Origin: a virus
Length of the DNA stretch: 37,995 bases
Direction: 5' to 3' (one strand)
IMG/VR virus record: IMGVR_UViG_3300045922_000127
Span: 1 to 37,995 of that record
Shown here: piece after piece, positions 5,165 through 32,380 of the stretch
How the letters are laid out: each line of letters starts with the position of its first letter
Position numbering within the stretch: position 1 is the stretch's first letter
Translations under genes and position numbers: made by a program
The notes under the pieces: generated by a model
Told to the model about the DNA's origin: nothing
Databases searched by the model: none
Seen by the model: the letters and a program-made list of their open reading frames with translations, nothing else

Positions 5165-5208
5165 GGTATCCCTTCCCTTCCTGTTGGTGTTTCTCGCGGT
5201 CACTCCGC

Positions 5209-5520
5209 TTACGCGTATTCCTCGACGAGCATGGCGGCAACATCCTGGGCCAGCGAGCCCGTCACTTTTTCGCTGCCCCACCAGCCGACGATCTCCGCGC
5301 CGTAGCCGGTTGCCTGCCATCCGTAAGCCTCGTGGACCATCGGGATACGTGCCTCGAGGTGAGGGCCGCCCGTGGCGAACACGACCTCAAGCGTGTAGGT
5401 GATCTCGACGCTCAACGGGACGCACTCGTCGTCGTAGTGGTCGCCGCTGAGTTTCCGCTCGAGCATGTCGCGGATCGACTCAACGTGCGCCGTGAGCTGG
5501 TCCCTGGTCTCGTTGTCCAT
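5209..5520 (-). CDS. small acidic protein, paralogue 2 (103 aa)
   Basis: MDNETRDQLTAH...DDECVPLSVEITYTLEVVFATGGPHLEARIPMVHEAYGWQATG. GGAAGGGAAGGA lies 7 nt upstream of the ATG. Confidence 0.8.
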   Translation of the reverse strand: MDNETRDQLTAHVESIRDMLERKLSGDHYDDECVPLSVEITYTLEVVFATGGPHLEARIPMVHEAYGWQATGYGAEIVGWWGSEKVTGSLAQDVAAMLVEEYA

Positions 5521-7550: not shown

Positions 7551-7856
7551 CGAGCACGGTTCACGCTCGTTCCCACCGTGCAGGTGGGGTGTTGTGTGTT
7601 GGTCGTCCCACGGCTTACACGCTGCTGGTGTTGCAGCTCGCGCCCGAGTGTCCTGACGCCTTCGGCGCTTCCGCGTGGGACCGGTCCCCGTTTCCGGCCA
7701 CTTTCCCCTCCGCTGGCTGACCAGGCTGATGTGCGGGTTCGGGGCTTGCTCCCTCACCTCCTGTCGTCCCGACGGTGGTGGGGCTGGGTTGTTGCGAGGG
7801 GATGATGGCATGGGGTGGGGGGCGGTGTCAAGCATCAGCGACGCTGGTTGGGTACG

Positions 7857-9800
7857 ATGCTTGTTGTGCCGCGGCGACGGATCGACCCTTCAGATGTGGC
7901 CCGCTACTGGGAGCTGCGAGCGATCGGGTGGAATATTCAGAACGCAGCCCGCGACGTTGGGATACACGTCAACACGGCGTCGAAGTGGGAGAAGAAAGCC
8001 CGCGACGCCCGCGAAGCGACGAAAGCGCACACGAGGGAGATCGCGGCGGCGCTCGAAGGTGGGATGCAACGCTCCACGGCGCGGCGGGAGGCGTTCAGCG
8101 ACGAGCTGAACGGACCCATCCCCCTCTCGGCGCTGTGCGCCGAGGCAAGGAAAGGGTTGGAGGACTTCGAATACTTCCGCAGGGTGTACCTGGGTCGGGT
8201 GCCGTCACCGTGGCAGGTCGAAGCCGCGTACAAGATCAAAGCGCTGCTGGAATCCGACGACAAAGAACGCGTCGTGCTGAACGTCGCCCCCGGCGTCGGG
8301 AAATCCACCCTGTGGCACGACATTGCGGTGTGGATGATCTGCCGCGACCGCTCCATCCGCATCCTCATCGGCTCCATCTCCGGTGTGCTAGCGAAACAGT
8401 ATTCGGATCGGATACGCAACACCCTCGAGCGCACAGAGCCGATCATGCCCTCCGACTACGAGATCGCGAAAGGGCTCGCCGTCCCCGCCACCCGCTGCCT
8501 CGCAGTTGATTACGGCAGGTTCCGCCCCATCTCGGCTGGCAGCTTGTGGCGCAAAGAGGAGTTCATCGTCGAACAGCACGGACAGCAGGCGATCAACAAC
8601 AAAGAACCCACCGTCTCCGCGTACGGGATGGACGCCGAGTTCATCGGCCACCGCGCCAACCTGTGCCTGTTCGACGACGTAGCCAACACTGAGAACGCGA
8701 AAGAATCCGCCGCCCGCGACCGCCTCATCGAAAAATGGGACGCGGTCGCAGAAGCCCGCGTCGAAGCCGGCGGCCTCCTCGCCGTCATCGGGCAACGCCT
8801 AGGACCAAACGACCTGTACGCCCACTGCTTGGCGAAGAAAACATGGGACCCCGACGACCCCGACGTCGAGCAGGAAACCCCCATGTACCATCACCTGGTT
8901 TACAAGGCGTACTACGAAGAGCTCGACACCGGCATCGAATCGAAACGCCCCAACGCCCCCGCCTGGCCGAACGGCCCCCTGCTCGACCCGAAACGCCTCC
9001 CGTGGAAAGACCTCGTGCAAATCCGCCAGGCGAACCGCCAAAAATTCGAGGTTGTCTACCAGCAGAACGCCAACACCGACACCAACGCGTTGATCTTGCG
9101 TGTGTGGGCCACCGGCGGGATGGGACCGGACGGGGTGCTGTACCCCGGGTGCATCGACGACGACCGCCAACCAGGGCACCCGCCACCAGACCTGAAACCG
9201 CCGGTGCTGTCCATCGGCACCATCGACCCGTCCCCCACCGAATACTGGGCTGTCGAATGGTGGCTGCACCAACCAGAAACCGGCCTGCGATGGCTGGTTG
9301 ACATGGAACGCCGCCGCATGACCGCCGAGGAAGTGTTGGGCTACGACACGATCACCGGCACCCACTTCGGGATCATGGAAGACTGGCAGAACCGCTCCGC
9401 CGCCCAACACTATCCGATCACCCACTGGGTGGTGGAAACGAACGCGGCGCAACGATTCCTCCTCGCCCACGACTTCGTGCGCCGCTGGCAAGCGAAACAC
9501 CGAGTCAACATCATCCCCCACCAGACACACGCCAACAAATGGGACGAACGGTTCGGCATCGAAGCGTTGCTCCCCCCGCTGTGGCGGTCAGGTGCGGTGC
9601 GAATCCCCACACTCCGATCCAACTGGAAAACGTTGGCGTTCATCGACGAGATGGTGTCATGGAAACCTGACAAGAAACGCGGCACCGACATGGTTATGGC
9701 ACACTGGTTCGCGGAGCTTCACTGGCCGAACGTCCAACAGATCAAACCCCCACCCCGCCAGTGGAGACCCACGTTCATGCAACCCGCGAGGAGCGCCTGA
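7857..9800 (+). CDS. terL: terminase large subunit with an N-terminal HTH domain
   Basis: N-terminal WNIQNAARDVGIHVNTASKWEKK (HTH), Walker A NVAPGVGKST and Walker B-like LCLFDD. It is the first gene of the late block. Alternative GTG start at 7815. Confidence 0.85.
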   Translation: MLVVPRRRIDPSDVARYWELRAIGWNIQNAARDVGIHVNTASKWEKKARDAREATKAHTREIAAALEGGMQRSTARREAFSDELNGPIPLSALCAEARKGLEDFEYFRRVYLGRVPSPWQVEAAYKIKALLESDDKERVVLNVAPGVGKSTLWHDIAVWMICRDRSIRILIGSISGVLAKQYSDRIRNTLERTEPIMPSDYEIAKGLAVPATRCLAVDYGRFRPISAGSLWRKEEFIVEQHGQQAINNKEPTVSAYGMDAEFIGHRANLCLFDDVANTENAKESAARDRLIEKWDAVAEARVEAGGLLAVIGQRLGPNDLYAHCLAKKTWDPDDPDVEQETPMYHHLVYKAYYEELDTGIESKRPNAPAWPNGPLLDPKRLPWKDLVQIRQANRQKFEVVYQQNANTDTNALILRVWATGGMGPDGVLYPGCIDDDRQPGHPPPDLKPPVLSIGTIDPSPTEYWAVEWWLHQPETGLRWLVDMERRRMTAEEVLGYDTITGTHFGIMEDWQNRSAAQHYPITHWVVETNAAQRFLLAHDFVRRWQAKHRVNIIPHQTHANKWDERFGIEALLPPLWRSGAVRIPTLRSNWKTLAFIDEMVSWKPDKKRGTDMVMAHWFAELHWPNVQQIKPPPRQWRPTFMQPARSA

Positions 9801-11602
9801 TGAGAACCGTCGACGAGATCGTGAACCTGTGGAACGAACGGGTGCAACGCCTCGGTCCCGTCCACTCGCGCATCCGCGAAGTTCGACGCATCGCAGACGC
9901 CGATATCATCCTCCCGCTCAACGAGCTGGACCGCAACGCCAGGGCGTCGGTTGCGAACCTGCTGCTGCAAGGCTTGGATCAGATGTCCGCCAGGGTGGCG
10001 TCGGTGATCCCCCACCCGTATTTCGCCCCGTTGAAACAGTCGGAGCGGGCACGGCAGGACGCGAGAACCCGCCGCAACACGGTGCTGTCGTGGTGGGATC
10101 GCAACCAGCTCGACCTGAAGCTCTCCTACCGGGCCAGGCATCTGCTCGCCTACTCGTTCTCCCCGGTGATCGTCGAACCGTGCTTCAAGCGGATGATCCC
10201 CAAGTGGCGGGTCCACAACCCGCTGGATGTGTTCCCCGCGGCGATGGACCAACCAGACGACATGTGGCCCGACGATGTGATCGTCGCATGGGAGGTCACC
10301 ACCCGCTGGTTGCTGCGCGAACACCCCGAACAAGCCCGCCGCCTCAACGTGCGCCCCAACCGCCCTGATGACCGCTGGCATGTGCTCCGCTACATCGACG
10401 ACCAGGAATCGGTGCTGTGCGTCGCCGGCACCGCCCAACCACCCACCGAAACCCGCATCGACTGGCCAGCCACCTCACATTCGGTTGCGGTCGAGCTGTC
10501 AAGAACCCCGAACCGTGCCGGGGTGCCGCTGGTGGTGATCCCGCAACGCATCACACTCAACCAGCCGCGAGGCCAGTTCGACGGGATGATGAACATGTAC
10601 TACACCCGCGCCCGCCTCCAAGCACTCAACGAGATCGCGATCGAACGCGGCATCTTCCCGAACGAATGGTTGATCGCCCGCCCCGGAGAGCACCCTGAGG
10701 TGATCGTCAACGCCGACGGCAGACAAGGGATCGTCGGTGTCGTCAAAGGCGGCATCATCGAGAAGATGGAAGTGAACCCCGGATACAAAACCGACACTGC
10801 CCTGGACCGGTTGGAACGCCAAGAACGCGTCGAAGGTGCGATCCCCCCCGAGTTCGCCGGTGAATCAGGGTCGAACATCCGCACCGGACGCCGCGGTGAC
10901 AGCATCCTGTCCGCCACCATCGACTATCGGGTGATGGAAGCGCAACGCCTGTTCGAGAAATCGTTGACCGTCGAAGATCGCATCGCCGTCGCCGTCGACA
11001 AAGCGTATTGGGGTTCGATCCCCAAGTCGTTCCTGATGCCCGGACGCGCCCCCGACGGTCGGATCGACTATGTGCCGAACAAGTTGTGGGAATCCGACGA
11101 ACATGTGGTCACCTACCCCGCTGCCGGTTCCGATATCAACAACCTGGTGATCGGGTTGGGGCAGCGGATCGGCACCGGGATCATGTCGAAAGAAACCGCC
11201 CGCGAATCCGACCCGCTGATCTCCGACCCGGAGCTGGAGAAAGACCGCATCGTGCGCGAAGGGTTGGAAGCAGCGTTCCTCGCGTCGATCCAACAACAAG
11301 CAGCCGACCCGAACGGCCCCTACCAGCCCCGCGACCTCGCCGCGATCGTCCGCAAAGTGCTCGACGAGAACAAACCGCTGTTCCAAGCAGTCGAAGAAGT
11401 CGACAACGAAGCCCGCGAACGGCAAGCCACCCAAGTACCAGAAGGGGACCCGATGACCCAACCAGGGTTGGCGACCCCCGGCATGGGAGCGGAAGCACCC
11501 GAAGCGGTGCCACCAGTGGAACGATCCGTCGCGAACCTCGGCACGATGCTCAACCAGCTGCGCCGCCCAGTCGCGGTGGCGAACACGATGAGCGGTGGTT
11601 GA
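9800..11602 (+). CDS. portal protein (600 aa)
   Basis: GAGGAG upstream and a TGATG overlap with the terminase stop. Size and position directly after the terminase fit a portal. No catalytic motif is expected. Confidence 0.7.
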   Translation: MRTVDEIVNLWNERVQRLGPVHSRIREVRRIADADIILPLNELDRNARASVANLLLQGLDQMSARVASVIPHPYFAPLKQSERARQDARTRRNTVLSWWDRNQLDLKLSYRARHLLAYSFSPVIVEPCFKRMIPKWRVHNPLDVFPAAMDQPDDMWPDDVIVAWEVTTRWLLREHPEQARRLNVRPNRPDDRWHVLRYIDDQESVLCVAGTAQPPTETRIDWPATSHSVAVELSRTPNRAGVPLVVIPQRITLNQPRGQFDGMMNMYYTRARLQALNEIAIERGIFPNEWLIARPGEHPEVIVNADGRQGIVGVVKGGIIEKMEVNPGYKTDTALDRLERQERVEGAIPPEFAGESGSNIRTGRRGDSILSATIDYRVMEAQRLFEKSLTVEDRIAVAVDKAYWGSIPKSFLMPGRAPDGRIDYVPNKLWESDEHVVTYPAAGSDINNLVIGLGQRIGTGIMSKETARESDPLISDPELEKDRIVREGLEAAFLASIQQQAADPNGPYQPRDLAAIVRKVLDENKPLFQAVEEVDNEARERQATQVPEGDPMTQPGLATPGMGAEAPEAVPPVERSVANLGTMLNQLRRPVAVANTMSGG

Positions 11603-11603
11603 C

Positions 11604-11978
11604 ATGGCGTACGGGAACCGCACCGACCTGAACAACGCTGTGAAACAAGCCGAGTTCACCGGCCAACCCTACGGGCAAGCAACCGCGCAACGCCGCGCGC
11701 AACGAGCCGTCCCACCAGGCCCACCCCCCACCGAAACCAACACGGCTGGTCCGGTCGCCGGCGGGTTGACCCCACTGGATGCACCCACCCAACGGCCCGC
11801 CGAACCGGTCACCACCGGTCTGCCGTTCGGAGCGGGCGCAGGCCCCGAAGCGTTGGGTGCGACCGGCATCCAACCAGGTTCCCGTGAAGATGTGATCCTG
11901 CGGGTGCGTGCGATGGCAGCCCGCTACCCGAACCCTGCGTTGATCGCGGTGCTGCAAGCGTTGGAGTCGAAACGGTGA
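11604..11978 (+). CDS. hypothetical virion-module protein (124 aa), Pro/Gly-rich centre
   Basis: The ATG lies 2 nt after the portal stop (alternative GTG 11595). The stop overlaps the next gene (GTGA). Confidence 0.6.
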   Translation: MAYGNRTDLNNAVKQAEFTGQPYGQATAQRRAQRAVPPGPPPTETNTAGPVAGGLTPLDAPTQRPAEPVTTGLPFGAGAGPEALGATGIQPGSREDVILRVRAMAARYPNPALIAVLQALESKR

Positions 11979-14900
11979 ACGACTACGACGAGATGCTCGC
12001 CGCGCACGCACGGCAGGTGGCGTTCCGACGCGAAACGGAACGCCGCGCCCGCGAAACCACCCCCCAGCAGGCAGCGACCGTCACCAAAGGCTGGTTAGCG
12101 AACCGGAACCTGAACGTCGAAGCGATGGTGTCGGCTGTGCTGGCCGGTGCCGACGAGCAGATGCTGTGGAACATGAACCAGGCGGCAACCAAACAGATGC
12201 TCCAGGCTGGTGTCGCCCCCGAATCCCCCGCCACGACCAGCCGGCGGCAGCTCGGGTTGAGCACCACAGTCGGAGCGAAAGTTGGTGCAAGCAGCGAACC
12301 CAACCCGTTGCAGCGAGGCGCGATGGCGGTCTCACGCGGCGTGTTCACCGGGCTCATGTCGTTCCCACAGTACCTGGAGAACCTCGCCGGGCAAGCTCTG
12401 CCGCTCCCCGGACAAGACGACTGGAAACCATCCGATCTTGTCAACCTCGTCACCGGCATCCCACAAGCGGCACGCGCCACCGAGCTCGGTCAGGTTGTGG
12501 AAACCGCGTTCCGCACCGGCAGCGTCGATCAGGGCTCAGGATGGTTCCCGCAAGGCCAGGTGCGCGAAGCGCAAGCCGAACGGCAACGCGACCTGTTGGG
12601 CACCGTCACCGGTCGCGACGGTCAACAAGTCGCGTGGACACTCGGACGTGGCATCGCCAGCGACCTCGCCAGCATCAACGTCATCAACCGGGACAGCCTG
12701 TGGTTCGATCTCGTCTCCGGAACCGTCGACGCAGTGATCGAGATGGTCACCGACCCCACCAACTACATCCCAGTCGCCGGGTGGGGTGACGAAGCGATCA
12801 AAGGGATGGCTGCGGTCGGCGGCAGAACCGGACGCCGTGTCGCAGAGCTCCGCCAGGCTGCGGTCGCCGCCGAAGCAGCAGGCGACACCGTGCTCGCCGA
12901 GCGAACGTGGCGGGCTATGGCCCAAGAGCTCGGTGCGCCACGACGCCTCCTCAACAACGCCACCACCCCAACCGATGTGGCGATCCGCGCCGCGCTCCTC
13001 CACGAAGCCGGTGTCGTCGGATCGAACGGGACGCGCACCATCCTGCTGCCAGAGTTCGCCCGGTTCCTCACCACCGGCAACGGTCGTCGCGTCGTGGAAC
13101 GCATGGTGGAAGAAACCAACGTGGCGCGCATCGCCAGGTTGCACAAGAACAAGGTGTCCGGTGCCGTCGCCCGCCAGCTCGCGGAAGCGAAAACACCGGA
13201 AGAAGTGATCGAAGTGTACGCGCGGGCGATGGCGAACCCCGGCGCAGATTTGGCGAACAGCGTCCAACAGATGCCGCACCTCACCCCGATGAGCCTGACC
13301 AGCATGGGGTTGTGGGTGCAAGACAAGCTGGCGTCCCGCACCCGACTGTGGAACCTGCGCCCCACCGACGCCGCCATCAACATCAACGACCCGTACGGGT
13401 ACACCAAGATCGACCAGCTGTATCGCACCATGCCGGTGGAGCCGTCGCTGGCTGTCGGCAGATACAACACCGAGCTGCGCGACCTGCGGATCAAACAGTT
13501 CATCGAAGCGCAAGCCACCGGCGACGAAGGCCAGATCAAGAACGTGGTGAACGCGATCGCAGATGATTTCCGCAGAACGTTCGTGAAGCTCGGGTTCTCC
13601 GAAGATCAAGCCACCCAGGCGACACGGTGGGCGACCGAAGAACAGATCGCCGGGTCGTATCGCACCGCGGACCTGTTGGGTGGCGGGCCGGTTGATGACA
13701 GCATCCTGTTGACGACACAGGTGCTGCAAAACGATGTGCACGTCATCGACCCGCAGATGTTCAACCAGATGTATCGGGAGATGACCCGGTTGCGTCAAGT
13801 GCTGCGCTCCAACCCGGCGTTCTCCACCTGGCAGCGAACACAACGAGCCCTGTACGACGCGGTGATCGAACGCGAAGCCGCCGAAGCCGCGCAAGATTGG
13901 GCTGCTGTCCGCAACCTCGACAAACAGGTGCGCTCCCTCGAAGCGAAACGGACACGTCTCATCGAGAAACAACGCGCCGGCGGCGACGCGTTGGCGGTGT
14001 CGCTTGTTCGCGGTGTCCAGATGATCGCAGACAACGCGATGGGGTTCCTGAAGAACATCATGATCCTCCGCGGCGCCTACCTGCCACGGGTCATCGGGGA
14101 GGAGATCGCCCGCACCGCAGGCGGCAACGTGTACGGCAACGACCCGCTGGAGATGATCGCCACCATGATCCGGTGGGCGTACAACAACGACGCCACCGGG
14201 CAACGGTTCGTGCGCGCCGTCTCCGACTACGACAGCCTGGCGTTGCTGCGCGACGACCGCGCCGCCGAACTGGCGATCCTGCGCCGCTCCGGAGCCTCAC
14301 AGAAACAGATGGATGAGGCGCAACGCGCTCTCGACGAGATCGACAACATGCTCGCCAACCTCGACGACACCGTGCAGTCGTCGATGGCGGAGTTCAACGA
14401 GGCGATGATCGGGCGGGACCGGTTCGACGCGTTGCGAACCGTCACGAAAGGGAACGCCGAATCGCAGATACGCACCGGTTCACGCCAAGTGGCTGATGTG
14501 CGAATCCCCGCCCAGCAACGCAACTGGGTTCGAGGCGTAGCCGACCGAGTGTCGTTCCTGTCCGGTGACCCGGTGATGCGCCGCCTCGCCAGAGGCCGCT
14601 TCGGTGACAAAGCGCTCGTCACCATCGACGGGATCACCGACAGCATCCCCAACCATCTCGCAGCCGGTCGCATCGTCGACCACGCCGACGCGGTGACCCA
14701 CTGGTTGCGGTCTGGTGGCGGCAGACCGTATCTGGATCGGATCGCTCGAGCCCGCGCCGCCGACAACATCCCGTTCGACCCGAACAGCCATGTGGCTGTG
14801 CGCGGCTGGGTGCAAGACATGTTGGACGAGCTGCAAACCGTCACCGGCGGCGACGAAACACTGATCTCCGCTGTCGGCACAGGCCGCTTCGACGGGCGAC

Positions 14901-17098
14901 AGCTCATGGCCAGGGACGCGAAAACCGGCAGATGGGTGCCGAACGACGGGTTGGTGAACCACATCGACGGGTTGAAAACGAACCCGAACATGCCACGGTT
15001 GATGTGGTACAAGACGCAGGAAACAGCCAGCCTGCCGCGACCGAAGATCATGGAAACGGTGGCGTCGGTGTTCTTCGGGAGCCTGTACGGCAAAGGGTCC
15101 GACATGCTGGCCCGCTCCCCCACGTTCCGGCGTGTGTATTGGAAGCACATGGAGACGTTGATCTCGTCCGCCACACCCGAGGAGGCGGCACGGATCGTCA
15201 ACAACGCACGAACCGCCGGCCTGCCAGGCGACGTGCTCCGCAACCTGGAAGCCAAAGCGCGTGGCGCAGCCGGACAAGCCAAGCTGGAAGATTTGGACAA
15301 GCTGGCGAAAGCCGGTGCCCTGTCGTACACCCGTGACCTGCTGTTCGACGCGTCGAAACGCGGCACCGGCATGGACATGCTCCGGTTGATCGTCCCGTTC
15401 GGTGACGCGTGGAAAGAAGTGCTCCTCACATGGGGTCGGCTGCTGGTGCAACAGCGCGGCCTCCCCGCCAAGAAGCTGTTGAAAGGGATACGCGCCGCCA
15501 CCGAAGCGCCGCTCGGACCCGACGTGTACGGCGTCGACGAAGAAGGCAACATCATCCCAGGCAGAGACGGGCGACGCGAAGGGTTCTTCCACCGCAACAG
15601 TGTCGGGGAATGGGTGTACACCGTGCCGTTCAGCGCGGAGATGTCCCGCTTGTTGTCCGGTGGGAAAGTGAACACCGCCCTGGATGCGCCGGTTGCCGGG
15701 TTGAACATCGCCGGGTCGATCTTCCCAGGGTTGGGTCCGGTGTCATCCGAGCTGGTCGCTGGTGCGCTACCTGACGACCCGCGGTGGGACAGTGTGAAAG
15801 CGATCCTGTTCCCGTTCGGCACCCCCGCCGACGCCGACACACCCGGTGGGCAAGCGAACGTGTGGCAACGCTACTTCGTGCCGCCTTCGGTGCGGAAGAT
15901 GGCCGCTGTGTTGGACCCGGAAGGCTGGCAAGGGTATCTGCGGAACCTGCTCAACGACTTCGACACCGACCCCACCTATCAGGCGACCGTCAACTACACG
16001 TACAAGCAGCTGCTGGCCGCCTACATGATGCAAGGTGTTGACGCTGACGCGTTCCAAAACCAGAATCAGATTCGCCGCGAAGCCGCAGCGATCGCGGACA
16101 CCATGTATTTCCTGCGGGGCGTCGGCCAGTTCCTCGGCCCAGCCACCCCCATGTCGAGGTACATGGTGGACACCGCGCAAGGGAACGTCGTCATCGGTCT
16201 GCTCATCGACGAGTGGCGCACCCTGGAGAAAGAGTACGAAGCGGCAGGCGGCGACCCTGACGACGCGATCTTCGACATGTTGGACCGCTACGGGCCGCAG
16301 GTGTGGATGACCGCCGCACCGAACACCGTCACCTTGCTGCAAGGAGCGGACGCGTCGAAAGAATGGTGGGACTGGTATCGGGTGAACAAGGACGCGATCA
16401 ACGCGTATCGGGATGTGGCCGCGTATCTCGGCCCGTCAGGCGAGTTCGACTTGGAGTCGTATTCGGCTCAGTCGTCGGCAGGGTTGCGGCGTGTCGCCAC
16501 CCCACAGGAGATGTACGAGCAGGCTGCGGAGGTGTTGGCGTGGGCGTATCTGGACCGGTTGAAAGAGTCGCTGCCACCGGAAGCGGAATGGGATCAGGAG
16601 ATTCGTGCCATGTTCAGCGACGAGCGGGCAGCGATCGAGCAACGCTTCTCGATCACGCTCGGTGGCACCGAAACCACGAACCGTCGCCGCGATCAGATCA
16701 ACCAGCTGCAAACAATGGTGGAAGCCGCCGAAGCAGGCGACCGCAACGCGCAGGCGCTTCTCGCTGGCGGCACCGGCGACGCTGTCCGAGTGTGGATGGC
16801 TGCCCGTGAAGCAGCGAACGAGGTGGTGCGGCAAGAGCTCGGTTTGACTGGGGTGAACGCGTGGGCGACCGCGGTGCGGGCTGCGCCGATCCGCGACCAG
16901 ATGCGCGAGCTCGGTGAGCAGCTGGCATCCGAAAACGAAGGGTTCGCCAGGTTGTATCGTCAAGTGTTGGAGCGTGAGATGCTGTCCGAAGAAACCGACG
17001 CCGACTATCAACCTTCGGCACGGTCATCTTCGACGCGCCCAGCGGGCACAGTGACGATCACCCCACCACGACGACAGCAGAGGCGGCGGGGGCGGTGA
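11975..17098 (+). CDS. giant virion-module protein (1707 aa), putative internal/ejection protein
   Basis: A single uninterrupted ORF with a GTGA overlap to the upstream gene. It lies between portal and scaffold and is largely predicted helical, with a basic tail RRQQRRRGR. No catalytic motif recognised by eye. Confidence 0.8.
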   Translation: MNDYDEMLAAHARQVAFRRETERRARETTPQQAATVTKGWLANRNLNVEAMVSAVLAGADEQMLWNMNQAATKQMLQAGVAPESPATTSRRQLGLSTTVGAKVGASSEPNPLQRGAMAVSRGVFTGLMSFPQYLENLAGQALPLPGQDDWKPSDLVNLVTGIPQAARATELGQVVETAFRTGSVDQGSGWFPQGQVREAQAERQRDLLGTVTGRDGQQVAWTLGRGIASDLASINVINRDSLWFDLVSGTVDAVIEMVTDPTNYIPVAGWGDEAIKGMAAVGGRTGRRVAELRQAAVAAEAAGDTVLAERTWRAMAQELGAPRRLLNNATTPTDVAIRAALLHEAGVVGSNGTRTILLPEFARFLTTGNGRRVVERMVEETNVARIARLHKNKVSGAVARQLAEAKTPEEVIEVYARAMANPGADLANSVQQMPHLTPMSLTSMGLWVQDKLASRTRLWNLRPTDAAININDPYGYTKIDQLYRTMPVEPSLAVGRYNTELRDLRIKQFIEAQATGDEGQIKNVVNAIADDFRRTFVKLGFSEDQATQATRWATEEQIAGSYRTADLLGGGPVDDSILLTTQVLQNDVHVIDPQMFNQMYREMTRLRQVLRSNPAFSTWQRTQRALYDAVIEREAAEAAQDWAAVRNLDKQVRSLEAKRTRLIEKQRAGGDALAVSLVRGVQMIADNAMGFLKNIMILRGAYLPRVIGEEIARTAGGNVYGNDPLEMIATMIRWAYNNDATGQRFVRAVSDYDSLALLRDDRAAELAILRRSGASQKQMDEAQRALDEIDNMLANLDDTVQSSMAEFNEAMIGRDRFDALRTVTKGNAESQIRTGSRQVADVRIPAQQRNWVRGVADRVSFLSGDPVMRRLARGRFGDKALVTIDGITDSIPNHLAAGRIVDHADAVTHWLRSGGGRPYLDRIARARAADNIPFDPNSHVAVRGWVQDMLDELQTVTGGDETLISAVGTGRFDGRQLMARDAKTGRWVPNDGLVNHIDGLKTNPNMPRLMWYKTQETASLPRPKIMETVASVFFGSLYGKGSDMLARSPTFRRVYWKHMETLISSATPEEAARIVNNARTAGLPGDVLRNLEAKARGAAGQAKLEDLDKLAKAGALSYTRDLLFDASKRGTGMDMLRLIVPFGDAWKEVLLTWGRLLVQQRGLPAKKLLKGIRAATEAPLGPDVYGVDEEGNIIPGRDGRREGFFHRNSVGEWVYTVPFSAEMSRLLSGGKVNTALDAPVAGLNIAGSIFPGLGPVSSELVAGALPDDPRWDSVKAILFPFGTPADADTPGGQANVWQRYFVPPSVRKMAAVLDPEGWQGYLRNLLNDFDTDPTYQATVNYTYKQLLAAYMMQGVDADAFQNQNQIRREAAAIADTMYFLRGVGQFLGPATPMSRYMVDTAQGNVVIGLLIDEWRTLEKEYEAAGGDPDDAIFDMLDRYGPQVWMTAAPNTVTLLQGADASKEWWDWYRVNKDAINAYRDVAAYLGPSGEFDLESYSAQSSAGLRRVATPQEMYEQAAEVLAWAYLDRLKESLPPEAEWDQEIRAMFSDERAAIEQRFSITLGGTETTNRRRDQINQLQTMVEAAEAGDRNAQALLAGGTGDAVRVWMAAREAANEVVRQELGLTGVNAWATAVRAAPIRDQMRELGEQLASENEGFARLYRQVLEREMLSEETDADYQPSARSSSTRPAGTVTITPPRRQQRRRGR

Positions 17099-17101: not shown

Positions 17102-18442
17102 ATGGCACGTAGACCACCAAACAACAGGACACGAACCCCGAACACCCCGGATGACGCCGGCGCGCCGCCCACCAGGTCGGCTCGCACCGGTCGCCGCCCC
17201 ACCCCAACCACACCCACACGCACCACAACCGCAGACGCCGACGCGCCGTCCACCAGAACGGATCGCACCGGTCGCCGCCCTACCAGCACCCGCCCCCCAG
17301 CAGCCGACGCACGCGACGTGGGGCAACAAGCCAGGGTTCGCAGCCGTGTCACCCCACCACAACCTGACCGCCCGATCCTCGGCCCACCCGCACCTGATCG
17401 GGACCGTGAACTACAGAACCGTGACCAACTGAACCGCATCTTGGTCGACAAGTTCATGAACGCCATCGCGCCGTTCACCGAATCGGAGATGCGGTTCACC
17501 GACGTTCCGTTGGGGTTGGATGCGATCACCTGGTCCACCACACGCGATGTTGTCGTCGCCCCCGACGGCACGCTCATCGAATGGGACGACGCCGTGAAAC
17601 AAGGGATCGTCACCATTGGTTCGATGACCGGTGGCCCACGGTTGGCTTCAGGGTTCACGCTGCGTGAGATCACCGAATACTGGGTTGATCCCGAGCTGAA
17701 ACCGCGTGACCCGTTCGAGATGGCACGGATACAAGCCGCTGCAGAGATCGAAGCCCGCGGCTACGTGGCCATGAAAGACATGTGGACACACATGCAGGCT
17801 GTCACCGGTGAAGGCTACGGCCCCGAATACCTGTCGGAACGCGACCGGTACATGACCGAGCAGGACGCGCTCAACACGCTCTACAAGATGAGCGTCGACG
17901 AGCTGGCGTTGGTCAAAACGAACCTGATCCGGTTGGGTCTGCTGTCCGAAACACAAGCCGGTCTCATGTCGGTTCGGGATATCAACAAGAAGGTTGAGGA
18001 CGCGTTCTTGTCACTGGTGGGGACAGCGCAGCAGAACGACATGAAATGGGATGCGTTCATGGGGCGCATGTTGAACGACGGCACCTCGTTCGGCGGCGGC
18101 GGTGGCCGTGGCGGCGGTCGTGGTCGTGGTGGTGGTGGTGGGGGTGGTGGCTATCAGATCAGGTTGACGAACCCTGACGATCTTCGCCAAGTGGCGAACG
18201 CTGTCGCACAGCAGCGCATCGGACGCACCCTCGACGACGACACCCTCAACCGGTTCGTCGCCGCCTACCAGGACCTGGAACGCCAATACCAGACGCAGTT
18301 CCAGCAGGGGCAGAGCGAGGTTGTGCAACCCCCGGCGGTGGACACGTTCGCCGCCACCATGCTGTCCCAACAGTTCGCCTCCGAAGAAGATGTTTACAAG
18401 CTGGGGGCGACACTTGACATGTTCACGGAGATGATCCGATGA
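17102..18442 (+). CDS. hypothetical virion-module protein (446 aa) with a basic Thr/Pro/Arg-rich N-terminus and a Gly/Arg tract
   Basis: Track ORF. It carries RTGRRPT twice in the first 70 aa and GGGGGRGGGRGRGGGGGGGG near residue 335. Confidence 0.75.
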   Translation: MARRPPNNRTRTPNTPDDAGAPPTRSARTGRRPTPTTPTRTTTADADAPSTRTDRTGRRPTSTRPPAADARDVGQQARVRSRVTPPQPDRPILGPPAPDRDRELQNRDQLNRILVDKFMNAIAPFTESEMRFTDVPLGLDAITWSTTRDVVVAPDGTLIEWDDAVKQGIVTIGSMTGGPRLASGFTLREITEYWVDPELKPRDPFEMARIQAAAEIEARGYVAMKDMWTHMQAVTGEGYGPEYLSERDRYMTEQDALNTLYKMSVDELALVKTNLIRLGLLSETQAGLMSVRDINKKVEDAFLSLVGTAQQNDMKWDAFMGRMLNDGTSFGGGGGRGGGRGRGGGGGGGGYQIRLTNPDDLRQVANAVAQQRIGRTLDDDTLNRFVAAYQDLERQYQTQFQQGQSEVVQPPAVDTFAATMLSQQFASEEDVYKLGATLDMFTEMIR

Positions 18443-19431
18443 CCATGACAGAGAACCCGGTGACCGCCCCCCGGTTCGCAGCCGAATGGCGCGCCACCCC
18501 CAGGAAAGACCGCCAAGAGCTGGCGCGATGGCTCGGTCTGTCCGACCAGCAGGTGCAAGAGCTGGAGGAATACACGATCCGGTCGGTCATCACCGAGGAG
18601 TTCGGTTGGGCAGCCACCTTCCTCGATCACGCCGAGCTGGGGCCGCTGCTGCGGCAAGCCGCGTGGGAAGGGTGGACCGCGCAGAAGCTCCAAACCGAGC
18701 TGCGGAAAACCAGGTGGTGGCAGTCCACCACCGAGGCGCAGCGGAGATGGGAAACAACCACCGCTGAGGACCCGGCGACCGCAGCACGAACCGTGGAGGA
18801 GCGCGCCATCGCGTTGCAGCAGCAGGCCGCACAGCTGGGTGGCAACCTGTCAACCGCGCAAGCGAAAACGCTCGCTGAGATGGCGTTGCGGAACGGCTGG
18901 TCCGAGATCGACGTGTCGCGTGCGTTGGGAGCCGAGCTGGTTCGCTCCGGGCAGACCACCGCGCTGCGTAAGGGGATCATCGGCACACAGATCGCCGCCG
19001 CCGCCTCCACCTACGGTGTGCCCATGTCTGAGGAGACGATCAACGGGTGGGTGCGAGCGATCGCGCAAGGATCAGCGGTCGCTGCGGACTATCAGCGGTG
19101 GCTGGTCGATCAGGCGGTGTCCATGTTCCCGGCGTTGGAGCAGGATTTGCGGCGCGGGTTGACTGTCGACCAGTTGGCGTCGCCGTATCGGGAGGTGGCG
19201 GCACGAACGCTGGGTGTGAACCCGGCGACCATCGACTTCTCGGACCCGAAATGGAACGCTGCGCTGAACGTGGTCGACCAGTCCGGGAAACGGCGTGTCG
19301 CGACGCTGGCTGAGTGGGGTGACATGATCCGCCGTGACAGCCGCTACGGCTACGACCAGTCGGATGAGGCGGTGTCGAAGGCGTACACGGTGACGTCTGA
19401 GATCAGCCGTGCGTTCGGGAGGCTCGGATGA
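18439..19431 (+). CDS. hypothetical virion-module protein (330 aa)
   Basis: Track ORF with ATGA overlaps at both ends. Confidence 0.75.
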   Translation: MTMTENPVTAPRFAAEWRATPRKDRQELARWLGLSDQQVQELEEYTIRSVITEEFGWAATFLDHAELGPLLRQAAWEGWTAQKLQTELRKTRWWQSTTEAQRRWETTTAEDPATAARTVEERAIALQQQAAQLGGNLSTAQAKTLAEMALRNGWSEIDVSRALGAELVRSGQTTALRKGIIGTQIAAAASTYGVPMSEETINGWVRAIAQGSAVAADYQRWLVDQAVSMFPALEQDLRRGLTVDQLASPYREVAARTLGVNPATIDFSDPKWNAALNVVDQSGKRRVATLAEWGDMIRRDSRYGYDQSDEAVSKAYTVTSEISRAFGRLG

Positions 19432-20402
19432 GCAACGTGGAGCCAGCCGCCGTCACCACCCAGGGTGCGGTTCGTGGCGCTGCCACTGGTGGCGTATCAC
19501 CGCAACCACCACCGTTCACCCCGCCCCGCCCGGCACCCGCGCCGCGCCCGACACCCGCCCCGGCACCGTCTCAGTCGGCGCGGCGTATCGTCGAGAACAT
19601 CCTGGCCGAGTTCGGGTTGAACACCCCTGCTCTGGTTGATCTGGTGATGACCGAGATCACCGAGGACACACAGATCAACCGTGACCGGCTCATGGCGCAG
19701 CTGCGAGCCACCAGCGAATACCAGCAGCGGTTCGCTGGGATGAAACTGCGCCGCGACGCCGGCCTCCCGGCGATCACCGAAACCGAATACGTCGCGTTGG
19801 AGCGCATGTACGCCCAGTTCATGCGCCAAGCCGGCCTCCCGGCAGGGTTCTACGACTCCCCCGACGATTTCGCACGGTTCATCGGCGCGGACGTGTCCGC
19901 CGCAGAGTTCCAACAGCGCATCGCCAACGGCTACCGGGCGGTCGCTGAAGCCGACCAGACGGTGATCGACCAGTTCCGCACCCTGTTCGGTATCACCGAC
20001 GGTGAGTTGGCGGCGTACATGTTGGACCCCGACCGGGCGTTGCCGTTGATCGAAGAACAGGTGGCAACAGCCAGGGTGGGGGCCGCGGCAGCACGCGCCG
20101 GGTTCTCGAACGTGGTGGAACGCGAAACGTTGACCCGCATGGCGCAGCTCGGTGTCACCGAACAGCAAGCCAGCGAAGTGTTCGGGACCATCGCCCGAAA
20201 CCAGGAGCTGTTCCAACCGTTGGACCCAACCGAAACCGCGATCAGCGTCGACGAAGCAGCGATGGGTTTGTCAGGGAACGACGCTGCGGCTGCCCGGCGG
20301 ATCAGGCAACGGCAGGAGCGTCGCCGCGCCGAGTTCGCTGGCGCAGCCGGCGGGTTCGCCACACAGGGTTCGACCATCACCGGTCTCACCGAAGCCCGCT
20401 GA
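19428..20402 (+). CDS. hypothetical virion-module protein (324 aa), Pro-rich N-terminus
   Basis: Track ORF with an ATGA overlap upstream, followed by a hairpin terminator. Confidence 0.75.
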   Translation: MSNVEPAAVTTQGAVRGAATGGVSPQPPPFTPPRPAPAPRPTPAPAPSQSARRIVENILAEFGLNTPALVDLVMTEITEDTQINRDRLMAQLRATSEYQQRFAGMKLRRDAGLPAITETEYVALERMYAQFMRQAGLPAGFYDSPDDFARFIGADVSAAEFQQRIANGYRAVAEADQTVIDQFRTLFGITDGELAAYMLDPDRALPLIEEQVATARVGAAAARAGFSNVVERETLTRMAQLGVTEQQASEVFGTIARNQELFQPLDPTETAISVDEAAMGLSGNDAAAARRIRQRQERRRAEFAGAAGGFATQGSTITGLTEAR

Positions 20403-20406
20403 AAAA

Positions 20407-20451
20407 CAGAAACCCCCCGCTCACCCGTCAGCTGGGAGCAGGGGGTTTCTG
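20407..20451 (+). terminator. hairpin terminator after the 324-aa gene
   Basis: CAGAAACCCCC (20407-20417) pairs perfectly with GGGGGTTTCTG (20441-20451). It begins 5 nt after the stop codon. Confidence 0.6.
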
Positions 20452-20505
20452 CCTCTGGGTTGGGTGCAGACGATGGCTGCCTGCACAGCGAACACTACAC
20501 CATCG

Positions 20506-20534
20506 TTGCAACCCGTGCAACCCTGTGTCATACT
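20506..20534 (+). promoter_or_regulatory. late promoter candidate for scaffold/capsid (TTGCAA-N17-CATACT)
   Basis: The hexamers lie in the 257-bp intergenic gap, about 125 nt upstream of GTG 20660. The 5' leader contains a 9-bp hairpin, CTCACACGC...GCGTGTGAG. Confidence 0.45.
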
Positions 20535-20659
20535 GTCACCGATGCCGCACGGCAGAACCTCACACGCAACCCCCCGGCGTGTGAGAGAAACCTCGGGGTG
20601 ACCACCTGTGCCGCCGTTCTTCCTCCGAGACCGGCGAGAACTGTGAAAGGAGCGCAACC

Positions 20660-21121
20660 GTGTCCAACGACGACACCACCCCCCCCATCGACGAGCACGA
20701 CGACCTCGATGAGGTGCCCATCCCGAAGCAGATGCGGCAGCACATCAAGGCGTTGGAAGCCGACAACAAGGCGCTCCGCGAACAGGTCGCGGAAGCCGCA
20801 GCGGCCCGCCGCAAGCTGGCGCTCATCGAAGCGGGCGTCGACCTGAACACGCCCACCGGGCAGCTGTTCGCGAAAGCGTACGACGGTGAGCTCACGGTCG
20901 AAGCGATCAAGGCGCAAGCCGAACAGTATGGGGTGGTGGCGCCTCCACCGGCCACAACCGCGTCACCCGCCGAACAGCAGGCGTGGCAGCAGCAGACCAG
21001 AGCACAGTCGGAAGGTTCCGCAACTGGAACAGACTGGTTAGCCAGGTTCGCAGCGGCCAAAACCCCCGACGAGGTTCGGGCGATTCAACGGGAGAAGATG
21101 CAGGCCGAAGGACTCGCATAG
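20660..21121 (+). CDS. scaffolding protein (153 aa)
   Basis: GAAAGGAG upstream of the GTG. Acidic N-terminus, coiled-coil-like KALEADNKALREQVAEAAAARRKLALIE. Located immediately upstream of the capsid gene. Confidence 0.7.
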   Translation: MSNDDTTPPIDEHDDLDEVPIPKQMRQHIKALEADNKALREQVAEAAAARRKLALIEAGVDLNTPTGQLFAKAYDGELTVEAIKAQAEQYGVVAPPPATTASPAEQQAWQQQTRAQSEGSATGTDWLARFAAAKTPDEVRAIQREKMQAEGLA

Positions 21122-21185
21122 CGTCGCTAGGGGCACGGTGCCGATCAGCCAGTCACCGTAACCGTCTGAAAGGACACCCCTACAC

Positions 21186-22160
21186 ATGCCTGTCTTCAAC
21201 CCCACCGGCAACACCGAGCTCAACTCGATTCAGGAGGCGTTCAACCGTCTCGCCTACTTCGCTCTGCGACCCGAGCTGTATTTCGATCAGGTCGCGTCGG
21301 TGAAGCCCGCCGAGCAGGCGATGCCCGGCAACATCGTCACGTTCACCATCTACACCGACCTGTCCCCGGCGATCACGCCGCTCGGCGAGTACGCCGACGT
21401 GGACATGCAGCTGTTCAGCGACTCGCATGTGCAGGTGCCGATCGCTGAGTACGGCAACGTGGTCGGCACCACCGCCGTCGCTCGAGCGCTGTCGTTCCTC
21501 GACCCCGACAACGACGCAGCGAACCTGATCGGGTTCAACGCTGGCGTGTCGGTCGACACGCTCGCCCGCGACGCGATCGCCGCCGGAACGAACGTGTTCT
21601 ACGCGTCCGGTGGCGTCACCCTGCCAACCTCTCGTGGCACCGTCCAAACCGAGGACACGCTCGTGGGCAGGGATATCGCGAAGGCGACCGCGCAGCTCCG
21701 CACCGCGAACGTCCCACCCCTGCTCGGGGCGGACGGGTCCGCCACCGAGGGCTACTATGTCGGGTTCATCCACCCGAACGTGTCCTACGATCTGCGGATC
21801 GCGACGGGGGCCGGCAACTGGCGTGAGCCTCGCTCCTACTCCGATCCCGGTGGCATCTACCGTGGTGAGGTCGGCGCACACGAAGGCGTGCGGTTCGTGG
21901 AGACCCCCCGCACCAAGATCTGGACCGGATCGGGTTCCGGTTCGATCAACGTGTACGCCACCCACATCTGCGGGTTCCAGGCGCTCGCGAAGGCGTACGC
22001 GACGCAGGACGGCTACGGGGAGCAGCCCCGGTTCGTCATCATGCCACCCACCGACAACCTGGGCCGGTTCAACAAGGTCGGCTGGAAGCACTTTGTCGGG
22101 TACAAGGTGTTCCGTGAGGCGTCGGTGCGTCGCATCGAGTCGTCGTCAAGCCTCGGCTGA
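21186..22160 (+). CDS. major capsid protein (324 aa)
   Basis: Position after the scaffold, size, an own SD (GAAAGGA) and a strong terminator downstream. The HK97-like fold is inferred, not demonstrated. Confidence 0.8.
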   Translation: MPVFNPTGNTELNSIQEAFNRLAYFALRPELYFDQVASVKPAEQAMPGNIVTFTIYTDLSPAITPLGEYADVDMQLFSDSHVQVPIAEYGNVVGTTAVARALSFLDPDNDAANLIGFNAGVSVDTLARDAIAAGTNVFYASGGVTLPTSRGTVQTEDTLVGRDIAKATAQLRTANVPPLLGADGSATEGYYVGFIHPNVSYDLRIATGAGNWREPRSYSDPGGIYRGEVGAHEGVRFVETPRTKIWTGSGSGSINVYATHICGFQALAKAYATQDGYGEQPRFVIMPPTDNLGRFNKVGWKHFVGYKVFREASVRRIESSSSLG

Positions 22161-22182
22161 CCCGTCCCCCATCTCCCCCTGG

Positions 22183-22218
22183 AGCCTCCCTCGCCTGGTT
22201 CGCCAGGTGGGGGAGGCT
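22183..22218 (+). terminator. hairpin terminator/attenuator after the capsid gene
   Basis: AGCCTCCC (22183-22190) pairs with GGGAGGCT (22211-22218), enclosing CCTGG-TTCG-CCAGG. Confidence 0.6.
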
Positions 22219-22237
22219 GACAGGGTACGGTGCTGTC

Positions 22238-22531
22238 ATGTTGCACGCCCGCATCCATCCCACCCTGGACGTTCCCGGCTGTTTCGGTTGCCGGGTGGCG
22301 TCCGTGTCGTTCGCGCCGTCTGCGATGCCGTCCCGGCACGCTCAAGCGGTCGAAGCGAACGAGCGGGAAGCCCGCTGGAACCGTGACCTCCCCGCCTACA
22401 AGCGGCTGGTCGAGTCCGGGTTGCAGCCGCGACAGATCGACGGCGCACACCGCCTGGAGGCCACCGCAACAGAACGCCACCAGATCGAAGGTGGTATCGA
22501 CCCGAAGATTGTGGAACGGGTGATGGGATGA
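22238..22531 (+). CDS. hypothetical protein (97 aa) with N-terminal CxxC
   Basis: Track ORF. ATGA overlap with the downstream glycosyltransferase. Confidence 0.65.
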   Translation: MLHARIHPTLDVPGCFGCRVASVSFAPSAMPSRHAQAVEANEREARWNRDLPAYKRLVESGLQPRQIDGAHRLEATATERHQIEGGIDPKIVERVMG

Positions 22532-23712
22532 CCGGCAGGTTGTGTTTGGAGCATGTGCCCCGCCACCACATCGGCTATGGGCGTGCAGGGATGGAGCTGT
22601 ACGCGGCGTGTGAACGCGCCGGGCTGGCCATGTCGTCGTCCGCTGCTGTTGGTGACGCCGAAACGGTCGTGTCCATGATGAACCCGCCGATGGTGAAAGG
22701 CTGGCTGTCGGGGCAGCGGCGTGTGATCTTCACCATGTACGAAACCACCGACTGCCCAGCCCAGTATCGGGTGCTCACCGATTTCGACATGGTGATCGTG
22801 CCGTGCGACGCGAACGTGGAAGCGTTCTCCAAGTGGCATCCGAACGTGGCGAAGGTGCCATTGGGAGCGAACCCCGACCATTGGCGGTTCCAACCCCGAC
22901 CGGCGAGCGGGCCGTTCACGTTCCTGACGCGTGGCGCGGAACCCCGCAAAGGGGTGGACGCCACCTGTGCAGCATTCCAACAAGCCTTCCCCAACAACCG
23001 CGACGTGCGGCTGGTTGTTCACTTCGCGTGGCCTTCCCATGTGGTGGTGCCGTCCGATCCGCGCATCACCGTCATCACCGACAGGTTGTCGCTGGAAACC
23101 GAGATCGCCTTGCACGCGGACGCACACTGCTATGTCGGGTTGTCACGCGGCGAGGGGTGGGGGATGATGCCGTTGCAGGCGATCATGCAAGGCTGCCCGA
23201 CGATCCTCACCGACGCCCACGGCCACGCCGAGTTCGCCCATCTCGCTGTGGGGGTCGCCACGTCGCTGACACCCGCCGCCGACTACATGCGGTTCGGTGA
23301 AGCCGGCGACTGGTGGGAACCCGACGTGGAGGACGCCGCCGTGAAGATGCGAGACGTGTACGACCGCTACGACTCGTACCTGGAGACAGCCACAGTGTGC
23401 TCACGGGTCGCCCGCGACGAACTCAACTGGGATCGCGCCGCGCAACAGCTGATCGACGCGCTCGGTGGCATCGACAGCCTGGGTCCGTACACGGGGTCGG
23501 GTGAGTTCGTGCGACGCTGCGAACCGCTGGTCCCGATCGTCGTGAACCGGAACATCGAATGCGAGATCGCAGACGTGGCGTATCGGTTCGAGTGCGGCGT
23601 CGAGCAGTGGGGGCCGGCGGATGTGCGGCGTGTGCTGCGCGACGCAGGGTACATAGACGATGACTGTTGGAACGATCCACGGTCGCGACTTCCGGAGGTG
23701 GTGCCCCTGTGA
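22528..23712 (+). CDS. GT-B fold (GT1/GT4-like) glycosyltransferase (394 aa)
   Basis: RKGVDATCAAFQQAF ... YVGLSRGEGWGMMPLQAIMQGCPTILTD matches the E-x7-E region of retaining GT4-type enzymes. Confidence 0.7.
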   Translation: MTGRLCLEHVPRHHIGYGRAGMELYAACERAGLAMSSSAAVGDAETVVSMMNPPMVKGWLSGQRRVIFTMYETTDCPAQYRVLTDFDMVIVPCDANVEAFSKWHPNVAKVPLGANPDHWRFQPRPASGPFTFLTRGAEPRKGVDATCAAFQQAFPNNRDVRLVVHFAWPSHVVVPSDPRITVITDRLSLETEIALHADAHCYVGLSRGEGWGMMPLQAIMQGCPTILTDAHGHAEFAHLAVGVATSLTPAADYMRFGEAGDWWEPDVEDAAVKMRDVYDRYDSYLETATVCSRVARDELNWDRAAQQLIDALGGIDSLGPYTGSGEFVRRCEPLVPIVVNRNIECEIADVAYRFECGVEQWGPADVRRVLRDAGYIDDDCWNDPRSRLPEVVPL

Positions 23713-24590: not shown

Positions 24591-24594
24591 CCGG

Positions 24595-27721: not shown

Positions 27722-27855
27722 ATCGGGGTGCCGTGATAGCCAAGAAGGTGATCCTCGGTGTCGCGGCGTTCACGCTGGGTTGGGTGATCGGCGGTGTCGC
27801 GATCATCGTGTGGGCTGGTCGCGAAGTGACACGAAACATGGTGGCGGTCAGATGA
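27718..27855 (+). CDS. 45-aa single-pass membrane protein (holin-like candidate)
   Basis: The GTG overlaps the fibre stop (GTGA). Product contains VILGVAAFTLGWVIGGVAIIVWA. Its stop overlaps the endolysin ATG. Confidence 0.5.
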   Translation: MNRGAVIAKKVILGVAAFTLGWVIGGVAIIVWAGREVTRNMVAVR

Positions 27856-32314: not shown

Positions 32315-32380
32315 GGCCGTCCCGCTCGGCCGTTAGATGGCGGCGCGAGACCACCAGGATCGGGTGGCCTCGCCGCCATC
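32315..32380 (+). terminator. two consecutive hairpins after the 114-aa gene
   Basis: GGCCG...CGGCC at 32315-32331. GATGGCGGCG (32336-32345) pairs with CGCCGCCATC (32371-32380), enclosing CCACC...GGTGG. Confidence 0.4.

Follow-up and report, generated by a model that had tools for sequence, protein, structure and literature searches.

A 1707-residue protein encoded next to the portal gene of an IMG/VR virus belongs to a widespread, unannotated phage family and may be an ejection-type virion protein

To our knowledge it is not known how short-tailed phages move their DNA through the thick wall of actinobacteria, the ejection proteins having been worked out only for phages of Gram-negative hosts. 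The IMG/VR virus record IMGVR_UViG_3300045922_000127, analysed here over its full 37,995 nucleotides (the window), raises this question through a single gene, a 1707-aa open reading frame (ORF) that follows the genes for the portal and for a 124-aa protein. A first-pass annotation, made from the letters of the sequence, had taken the product of this gene (the giant protein) for a packaged internal or ejection protein that was possibly multifunctional. What does such a small genome use so large a gene for? The data presented below establish that the gene is a divergent member of an existing, unannotated family, and we put at about one half the probability that its product is a packaged internal or ejection-type virion protein which helps DNA to cross the actinobacterial wall.

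The giant ORF is a real gene under purifying selection and not a shadow of high-GC coding on the other strand, as follows from its even composition, its coupling to both neighbours, its substitution pattern and the existence of a distant full-length homologue. The GC fractions at the three codon positions (GC1/GC2/GC3 of 0.66/0.47/0.79) are even across five 1-kb slices and the same as those of the portal and TerL genes, and the ORFs of 500 aa read from the other strand are the usual shadows of high GC. Its GTG start overlaps the TGA of the 124-aa gene (GTGA), with a GGAG 8 nt upstream, and the ATG of a 446-aa gene at 17102 comes 3 nt past its stop, so that the uninterrupted, well-coupled frame of 5.1 kb described at first is confirmed in its coordinates, its overlap and its downstream gap. 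Comparison with L016, a metagenomic copy of 96 % identity, gives a ratio of nonsynonymous to synonymous substitution rates (dN/dS) of 0.126, against 0.10 for the portal and 0.08 for TerL, and the full-length homologue (P0002) is 34 % identical. Nucleotides 1-127 of the window are identical to nucleotides 37869-37995 and the contig is therefore a circular assembly (a k-mer overlap) of 37,868 unique bp, probably a complete genome. The giant gene takes up 13.5 % of it, the share originally given being a fair one on this unique length.

The protein is no orphan. A word-indexed search with three queries (one protein and two alignments) found only seven relatives (P0001-P0006 and P0154), which include a 96 % copy, the full-length P0002 and a few distant proteins, and 50,697 phage records yielded nothing to megablast or tblastn with the giant sequence. 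In an all-against-all BLAST, a chain of matches runs from the window protein through P0002, P0003 and P0004-P0006 to gp9 of Streptomyces phage FlowerPower. When the window group was aligned with the gp9 group by hhalign, the two C-terminal cores (Table 1) were paired with a probability of 99.6 % and an E value of 2e-23. An exhaustive hidden Markov model (HMM) search with the C-terminal 1200 residues retrieved at least 3007 clusters (50 % identity) at E<=1e-3, 1676 of them at E<=1e-30. Lengths in the best 150 clusters are nearly all between 1300 and 1900 aa, and the family has a median of 1532 aa with a 10th-90th percentile range of 1372-1725. The orthologous group phrog_10618 is matched by 16 of the 30 members sampled, the window protein itself not being among those that match. 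These profile comparisons indicate that the giant protein is a member of the uncharacterised BF gp9/phrog_10618 superfamily; no conventional tape measure or other known protein came up in the profile searches.

Cultured phages are included in the family. The gp9 protein (family HMM E 1e-173) occurs in 29 Streptomyces podophages of cluster BF, to which FlowerPower has been assigned (PMC9753666), and is labelled 'hypothetical protein' in all of them; tblastn with the relatives P0005, P0016, P0033 and P0037 found the same 29 phages or nothing. The 'Candidatus Planktophila' phages E7 and F5 (OX376640/OX376641) contain giant ORFs of ~1760 and ~1720 aa that are members by HMM (E 2e-27 and 2e-15, respectively). 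Abafar, a Streptomyces phage with a homologue, is a podovirus by electron microscopy (EM) with 'a very short tail' (PMC11536984). In 185,579 species genomes, scanned twice, no prophage copy was found, and the contig of one relative contains whiB.

Searches for known domains in the giant protein were uniformly negative. Pfam, PHROGs, NCBIfam and PADLOC gave no match, the Pfam rows (DUF1932, ATP-synt_D and LPD22) all being below cut-off, and no defence or anti-defence model matched. A motif scan found no Walker A, HExxH, GDD, NADFDGD or CxxC, and with the domain libraries this upholds the initial remark that no Walker, polymerase or protease motif can be read in the protein. Against PDB sequences, phmmer found nothing significant and a 30-sequence family profile matched nothing but designed helical repeats, at E>0.06. 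A Pfam search of 35 family members, among them the longest at up to 2094 aa, with thresholds of 1e-3 to 1e-2 revealed no domain, fused or otherwise.

The positions that are at least 80 % conserved among 146 family members are chiefly Gly, Pro, aromatic residues and Arg. In the C-terminal core they form the motifs R1047-x-P1049, Y1055, R1137...P1141-F1142-x-x-A1145-W-x-E1148, P1251-G-x-G-P1255, P1389, G1440, R1611 and F1657, while each position of the N-terminal motif (Table 1) is 90-97 % conserved, in a region where AlphaFold2 confidence is low. Conserved acidic residues are few (D252, D260, D865, D1125 and E1148), and none of the conserved positions in the 146 members is His or Cys. As judged from the alignment, this pattern is the signature of a fold and not of an active site; together with the lack of any Pfam domain in the 35 members it leaves the suggestion of a multifunctional protein without support. 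The protein has a mass of 188 kDa, a pI of 5.8 and no Cys, and no transmembrane segment was found in it (maximum Kyte-Doolittle 19-mer of 1.18). It ends in PPRRQQRRRGR, the last nine residues of which had been noticed from the start, and the positions of this basic tail are 93 % gaps in 146 relatives; the tail is specific to its own clade and therefore says little about the family.

To obtain a structural view, AlphaFold2 was run on the giant protein as two overlapping parts with 41-sequence alignments. The model of residues 961-1707 is all helical, with a mean predicted local distance difference test (pLDDT) score of 75 and a predicted template modelling (pTM) score of 0.58; that of residues 1-1000 has a mean pLDDT of 68.5 and a pTM of 0.36. 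Both halves are almost wholly helical and multi-domain, with short beta hairpins only. Foldseek with the two halves against a copy of the PDB extending to 2026, in which the ejection-protein entries were not checked, gave no match at E<=0.001 (best E 1.3 for the C-terminal and 0.37 for the N-terminal half), the top rows being unrelated helical or solenoid proteins with a template modelling score of about 0.1. Among viral predicted structures (BFVD) the only significant matches were the second halves of uncharacterised proteins of uncultured freshwater phages.

These results bear directly on whether the giant protein is a packaged enzyme or polyvalent effector, such as a virion RNA polymerase of the N4/crAss type, a DarB-like anti-restriction protein or a MuF-type protein. 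Its size and post-portal position are those of MuF/SPP1 gp7-type and polyvalent proteins, and a faint LPD22 match and one DFDTD string at residue 1328 might be read in the same sense. The LPD22 match (E 0.074, 13.7 bits) is, however, far under the gathering cut-off of 28.6, with no Pfam match in any tested member, and the DFDTD string, for want of conservation across the family, was not accepted as a polymerase motif. The hidden RNA polymerase-like fold for which a check had been proposed is not among the Foldseek matches, nor is a helicase, methylase or nuclease fold, and the conserved Gly, Pro, aromatic and Arg residues, with no His or Cys, are not those of an enzyme; we regard a packaged enzyme as very improbable. 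Still less weight, next to none, falls on a reading of the giant as the tape measure of a long tail that went unrecognised. Length and helical content would suit it, but the window has no tube, sheath, tail-terminator or chaperone genes, the protein has no tape-measure match in PHROGs or Pfam and no hydrophobic segment, the relatives are podoviruses by EM (PMC11536984), and the gene comes before that for the capsid. The sole 'tape measure' PHROG match in the window is to the peptidase part of a VanY protein, and none of its structural genes was assigned to a tape-measure, tube or sheath family, exactly as the first-pass annotation had it. Membership of the T7 gp15/16, N4 virion RNA polymerase, MuF/polyvalent and tape-measure families was rejected on defining features that were looked for and not found, which for the T7 type were sequence or fold similarity and membrane-spanning helices.

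The giant gene is part of a conserved cassette. Eight loci (the window, L003, L005, L007, L009, FlowerPower, E7 and F5) share the order portal, small gene or genes, giant, a 250-480-aa gene, one or two genes of the w_330 family, a w_324-family gene, a scaffold-like gene of ~155 codons and the PF13252 capsid gene. There are small variations, E7 and F5 having two genes past the giant and the others three or four. The giant gene always has the small partner gene directly before it, with the two translationally coupled. Proteins of the w_330 family share a C-terminal body of ~270 residues and differ by phage in their N-terminal domains, which are NlpC/P60 in FlowerPower gp11 and L009 and SLT in FlowerPower gp12, L007 and L009; FlowerPower and L009 have duplicate copies of the gene. 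In L009 a LysM domain is found at the N-terminus of the w_324-family protein. The location of the giant gene between portal and scaffold was thus correctly described, but the next gene (446 aa) is no scaffold and three further genes intervene. The order, called atypical by comparison with T7, is indeed unlike that of T7, yet it is the conserved order of this lineage.

Phages E7 and F5, which infect the same 'Ca. Planktophila' strain, reveal that this cassette can be exchanged. Their TerL, portal, capsid and tail proteins are 96-99.7 % identical and their genomes 96-98 % identical in DNA outside one replaced block of 8.5 kb (E7 8373-16921), which takes in the 3' part of the small gene together with the giant gene and the next two genes and which corresponds to an unexplained '8 kbp genomic island' (PMC10202952). 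Across this block no nucleotide similarity was found between the two phages, and the two giants give no BLASTP match at E<=1e-3, both still matching the family HMM. Since the cassette has been swapped wholesale between near-identical phages, it acts as a unit for which a sequence-specific fit to the capsid, the portal or the tail matters little.

This exchange can also be set against the main rival explanation, in which the giant protein is an external distal tail component, i.e. a hub, knob or wall-drilling device that would make up, with its hydrolase-bearing neighbours, the host-contact end of the short tail, such as phi29-type phages have in their tail-tip hydrolases. Such a role would account for the SLT or NlpC/P60 domains of the w_330-family neighbours and for their 'minor tail protein' label in FlowerPower, and known Gram-positive podoviruses do carry a wall hydrolase on the tail (phi29 gp13). 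Tail tubes, nozzles and fibres are beta-rich, whereas the giant protein is predicted to be all-alpha with several domains, no part of it resembling a tube, nozzle or fibre, and the tail can be supplied by the genes past the capsid gene, which have conserved counterparts in FlowerPower gp43-45 and encode, among others, a fibre-like N-terminus and a collagen fibre. A hypervariable island, as the cassette is in E7 and F5, is typical of host-contact proteins (PMC10202952), but the tail genes of these phages stay 96-99 % identical while the cassette swaps, which is hard to reconcile with tight integration into the tail. Moreover, a multimeric 188-kDa subunit would imply a large tail, yet that of Abafar is 'very short' (PMC11536984). 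We therefore consider a distal tail role unlikely.

The same exchange, with the high divergence of the protein, would suit an arms-race protein. The giant protein could lie outside the mature virion, either as an assembly factor (a giant chaperone of core or scaffold type that is taken out before packaging or in its course), for which the separate small scaffold leaves room, or as a late host-takeover or anti-defence protein whose gene merely chanced to be in the structural operon. The lack of any defence or anti-defence model match, and of an enzymatic or binding domain in 35 members, speaks against this, and the fixed place between portal and capsid in eight divergent loci, with the coupling, argues for a stoichiometric structural role. 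More than a tenth of a 38-kb genome would also be a high price for an accessory function, and a non-virion role is in our view improbable.

The reading as a packaged, capsid-internal ejection-type protein is favoured for several reasons. The gene is in the late (virion) module, coupled and directly downstream of the portal and small genes; the relatives are podoviruses by EM and the window has no tube, sheath or tape-measure gene; the cassette keeps an invariant order with partners that bear hydrolase domains elsewhere; and both halves are predicted to be all-alpha, as are T7 gp15/gp16. Ejection proteins are helical and are recognised more by their size and gene order than by their sequence, and a hydrolase domain that moves between components is a described trait of their sets (PMC8954989), so that a helical, fast-diverging, hydrolase-linked and block-exchangeable protein resembles them. 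No gene of the module has diverged further between L003 and the window than the giant, at 34 % identity compared with 55 % for TerL, portal and small gene, which matches the pattern reported for gp15-like proteins and portals (34 % against 69 %; PMC8954989). From this context we infer presence in the virion, a capsid-internal location, ejection and a role in DNA delivery. What stands of the original proposal is thus the circumstantial case made by virion module, cassette, all-alpha prediction and divergence; no relationship to T7 gp14-16 or the N4 RNA polymerase, the examples on which it had drawn, was found.

In the mechanism that we envisage, the giant protein would be non-enzymatic and all-helical and would enter the procapsid at the portal vertex, to be stored inside the head. 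At infection it would exit through the portal and the short tail with the products of the neighbouring 124-, 446-, 330- and 324-aa genes; in relatives, the counterparts of the last two would bring SLT, NlpC/P60 or LysM domains with them. The giant and its partners together might carry the DNA, or guide it, through the thick wall of actinobacteria as far as the membrane.

A number of points weigh against this proposal. No family member has been directly placed in virions, no homology or fold similarity of the giant to any solved ejection protein was detected, and the AlphaFold2 models are of moderate quality, as their pTM values indicate, so that a distant fold match could be missed. The homologues of the 330-aa protein in FlowerPower, gp11 and gp12, were called tail proteins by the SEA-PHAGES annotators, and the placing of a wall hydrolase on the tail tip in known Gram-positive podoviruses, as with phi29 gp13, is a second point on the side of the tail. 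Finally, membrane-spanning elements have been called universal in gp14 and gp16 homologues (PMC8954989), and no hydrophobic segment was found in the giant or the four cassette neighbours (maximum Kyte-Doolittle 19-mer of at most 1.0 in the neighbours).

Tentatively, and with less assurance than for the single protein, the family may represent a new and very widespread DNA-delivery apparatus of actinobacterial podoviruses, an exchangeable 'ejectosome cassette' in which a giant capsid-internal helical protein, of a fold absent from the PDB, would act with small and hydrolase-bearing partners. If this is true, ejection proteins, which according to a recent review are missing from phi29-like Gram-positive podoviruses (PMC8954989), would extend to Gram-positive-type envelopes, and the recurrent hypervariable island of abundant freshwater actinophages would be explained. 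A family of at least 3,000 clusters takes up 10-14 % of each small genome and has no annotation, Pfam model or structural relative, and it includes cultured, tractable phages in the Streptomyces BF cluster and in 'Ca. Planktophila' E7 and F5. The exchange of the cassette between the latter two, which are 97 % identical and share a host strain, is a natural experiment on entry, host range and the evasion of injection-blocking defences. Even if absent from virions, the giant protein would belong to one of the largest uncharacterised phage protein families.

Table 1. Positions of the giant gene, its cassette and other features; coordinates are those of the window unless another genome is named.
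Feature	Position	Strand	Remarks
Giant ORF	11975..17098	+	GTG start, 1707 aa, no interruption
Conserved N-terminal motif, residues 224-261	12644..12757	+	G224 ... S248-G249-x-x-D252 ... D260-P261
Conserved C-terminal core, residues 1042-1671	15098..16987	+	matches FlowerPower gp9 residues 988-1589
Basic C-terminal tail RRQQRRRGR	17069..17095	+	only in own clade (window and P0001)
TerL	7815-9800		phrog_38
Portal	9761..11602	+	phrog_104
Small partner gene, 124 aa	11604..11978	+	Pro/Gly/Ala-rich; phrog_8200; ATG 11604 right after portal stop
446-aa gene	17102..18442	+	Arg/Thr/Pro-rich N-terminus, seemingly disordered; Gly/Arg tract
330-aa gene (w_330)	18439..19431	+	phrog_6654
324-aa gene (w_324)	19428..20402	+	phrog_8424; homologue of FlowerPower gp13
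Scaffolding protein (probable), 153 aa	20660..21121	+	coiled-coil-like; directly upstream of capsid gene
Major capsid protein	21186..22160	+	PF13252, phrog_1357
GT4 glycosyltransferase ('conflict-system' type)	22528-23712	+	right after capsid gene; GT4 also there in L007
VanY-type D-Ala-D-Ala carboxypeptidase domain	27660-28673	+	among tail genes
GT2 glycosyltransferase	32337-33368	+	within virion gene block
Pentapeptide-repeat protein, possible DNA mimic	365-1342	+	early region
Resolvase N-terminal domain, C-terminal part of it	3002-3508	-	early region
DNA polymerase III beta-clamp-like protein	4469-5320	-	early region
w_330-family genes, FlowerPower (L002)	12173-13474 and 13475-14767		
w_330-family gene, L007	8912-10417		
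w_330-family genes, L009	15784-18656		
Page_20 giant ORF, Page (L011)	19786-24825		end of tail module, next to lysis genes

The longest TerL and portal ORFs share 40 nt, and the portal ORF has 613 aa here compared with 600 aa in L016, which probably puts the real start of the portal gene a few codons past 9761. The small partner protein would have 127 aa if started at GTG 11595, and the gene caller on L016 gives 124 aa. In the 446-aa protein the N-terminal ~110 residues seem disordered, a GGGGGRGGGRGRGGGGGGGG tract is present and only the C-terminal half is conserved in L003 and L007; no scaffold signature was found in it, and it could be a nucleic-acid-binding internal protein. Residues 55-329 of the 330-aa protein are homologous to the C-terminal domain of the SLT or NlpC/P60 proteins of FlowerPower (gp11/gp12), L007 and L009, but in the window this protein has no hydrolase domain of its own and, by Pfam and PHROGs, neither has any other member of the cassette. 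Profiles of w_330 and w_324 found nothing in the PDB. The 153-aa ORF is likely to be the scaffold, and equivalent genes of 156-162 aa lie upstream of the capsid gene in L005, L007, L009 and FlowerPower.

Past the capsid gene and the GT4 gene, the late genes encode in order conserved proteins of 307 and 614 aa, a fibre-like 423-aa protein, VanY, a collagen/Laminin-G fibre, GT2 and a RecE/YqaJ exonuclease. The VanY protein is either an endolysin or a virion-associated wall hydrolase, and in the latter case it could compensate for the hydrolase domain missing from the 330-aa protein. Profiles of the putative tail-core proteins w_614 and w_307 found nothing in the PDB and singled out no adaptor or nozzle. 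The two glycosyltransferases in the virion block may point to virion glycosylation.

Of the named systems, the ejection proteins T7 gp15/gp16 and their counterparts in phiKMV, P22 and N4 are also large and mostly helical, diverge faster than the portal and are encoded by an adjacent gene set; they are associated with a movable hydrolase domain (PMC8954989), one that the window cassette lacks and its homologous partners in FlowerPower, L007 and L009 carry. For T7 gp16 a positively charged C-terminus is in addition required, and the window protein has RRQQRRRGR at its end, a tail that is not conserved in its family. They differ from the window set in that no sequence or fold similarity is seen, the window set has no transmembrane segment, its genes lie between portal and scaffold whereas those of the T7 type come after the tail genes, and the window host, judged from the hosts of the relatives, has no outer membrane. 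We propose that the giant protein may be a functional analogue, and not a homologue, of T7 gp15/gp16, the P22 E-protein and the N4 ejection sets, built on an unrelated fold.

Among podoviruses of actinobacteria there is a precedent for the favoured reading: gp27 of the Microbacterium phage Burro is a 4491-aa protein that is virion-associated by SDS-polyacrylamide gel electrophoresis and unlike the N4 RNA polymerase (PMC7302621). With gp31 of cluster EK (>4,400 aa) it is, like the window protein, giant, fast-diverging, domain-poor and encoded next to the portal; it is, however, 2.6 times longer, its gene is upstream of the portal, and it has two predicted transmembrane segments. Homology between Burro gp27 and the giant protein was rejected, as hmmsearch gave no match and hhalign a probability of 0.3 %. 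The Bacillus megaterium podophage Page has the same capsid family and an unannotated 1679-aa protein, Page_20, encoded beside a small 'lytic tail protein' (PMC3990757). Page_20 differs in its lysine-rich N-terminus and in a hydrophobic segment (Kyte-Doolittle 1.75), and as a homologue of the giant protein it was rejected, none being detectable.

The closest comparisons are with the family's own cultured members. Phages E7 and F5 have an actinobacterial host (Nanopelagicales) and their giants are in the same position, although the match is limited to the N- and C-terminal regions, the hosts are of low GC and two genes, not three, follow the giant. The Streptomyces BF phages (Beephvirinae: FlowerPower, Immanuel3, Manuel and Abafar) differ in that gp9 is too distant for tblastn with the window protein to find it among the phage records searched, in a tRNA array where no tRNA gene was found in the window, and in the hydrolase domain that the w_330 homologue of the window lacks. 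Their 1635-aa gp9 is nevertheless homologous to the giant protein and holds the same position behind portal and small gene, and homology extends to the gp11-13 partners, the capsid protein and the tail genes gp43-45.

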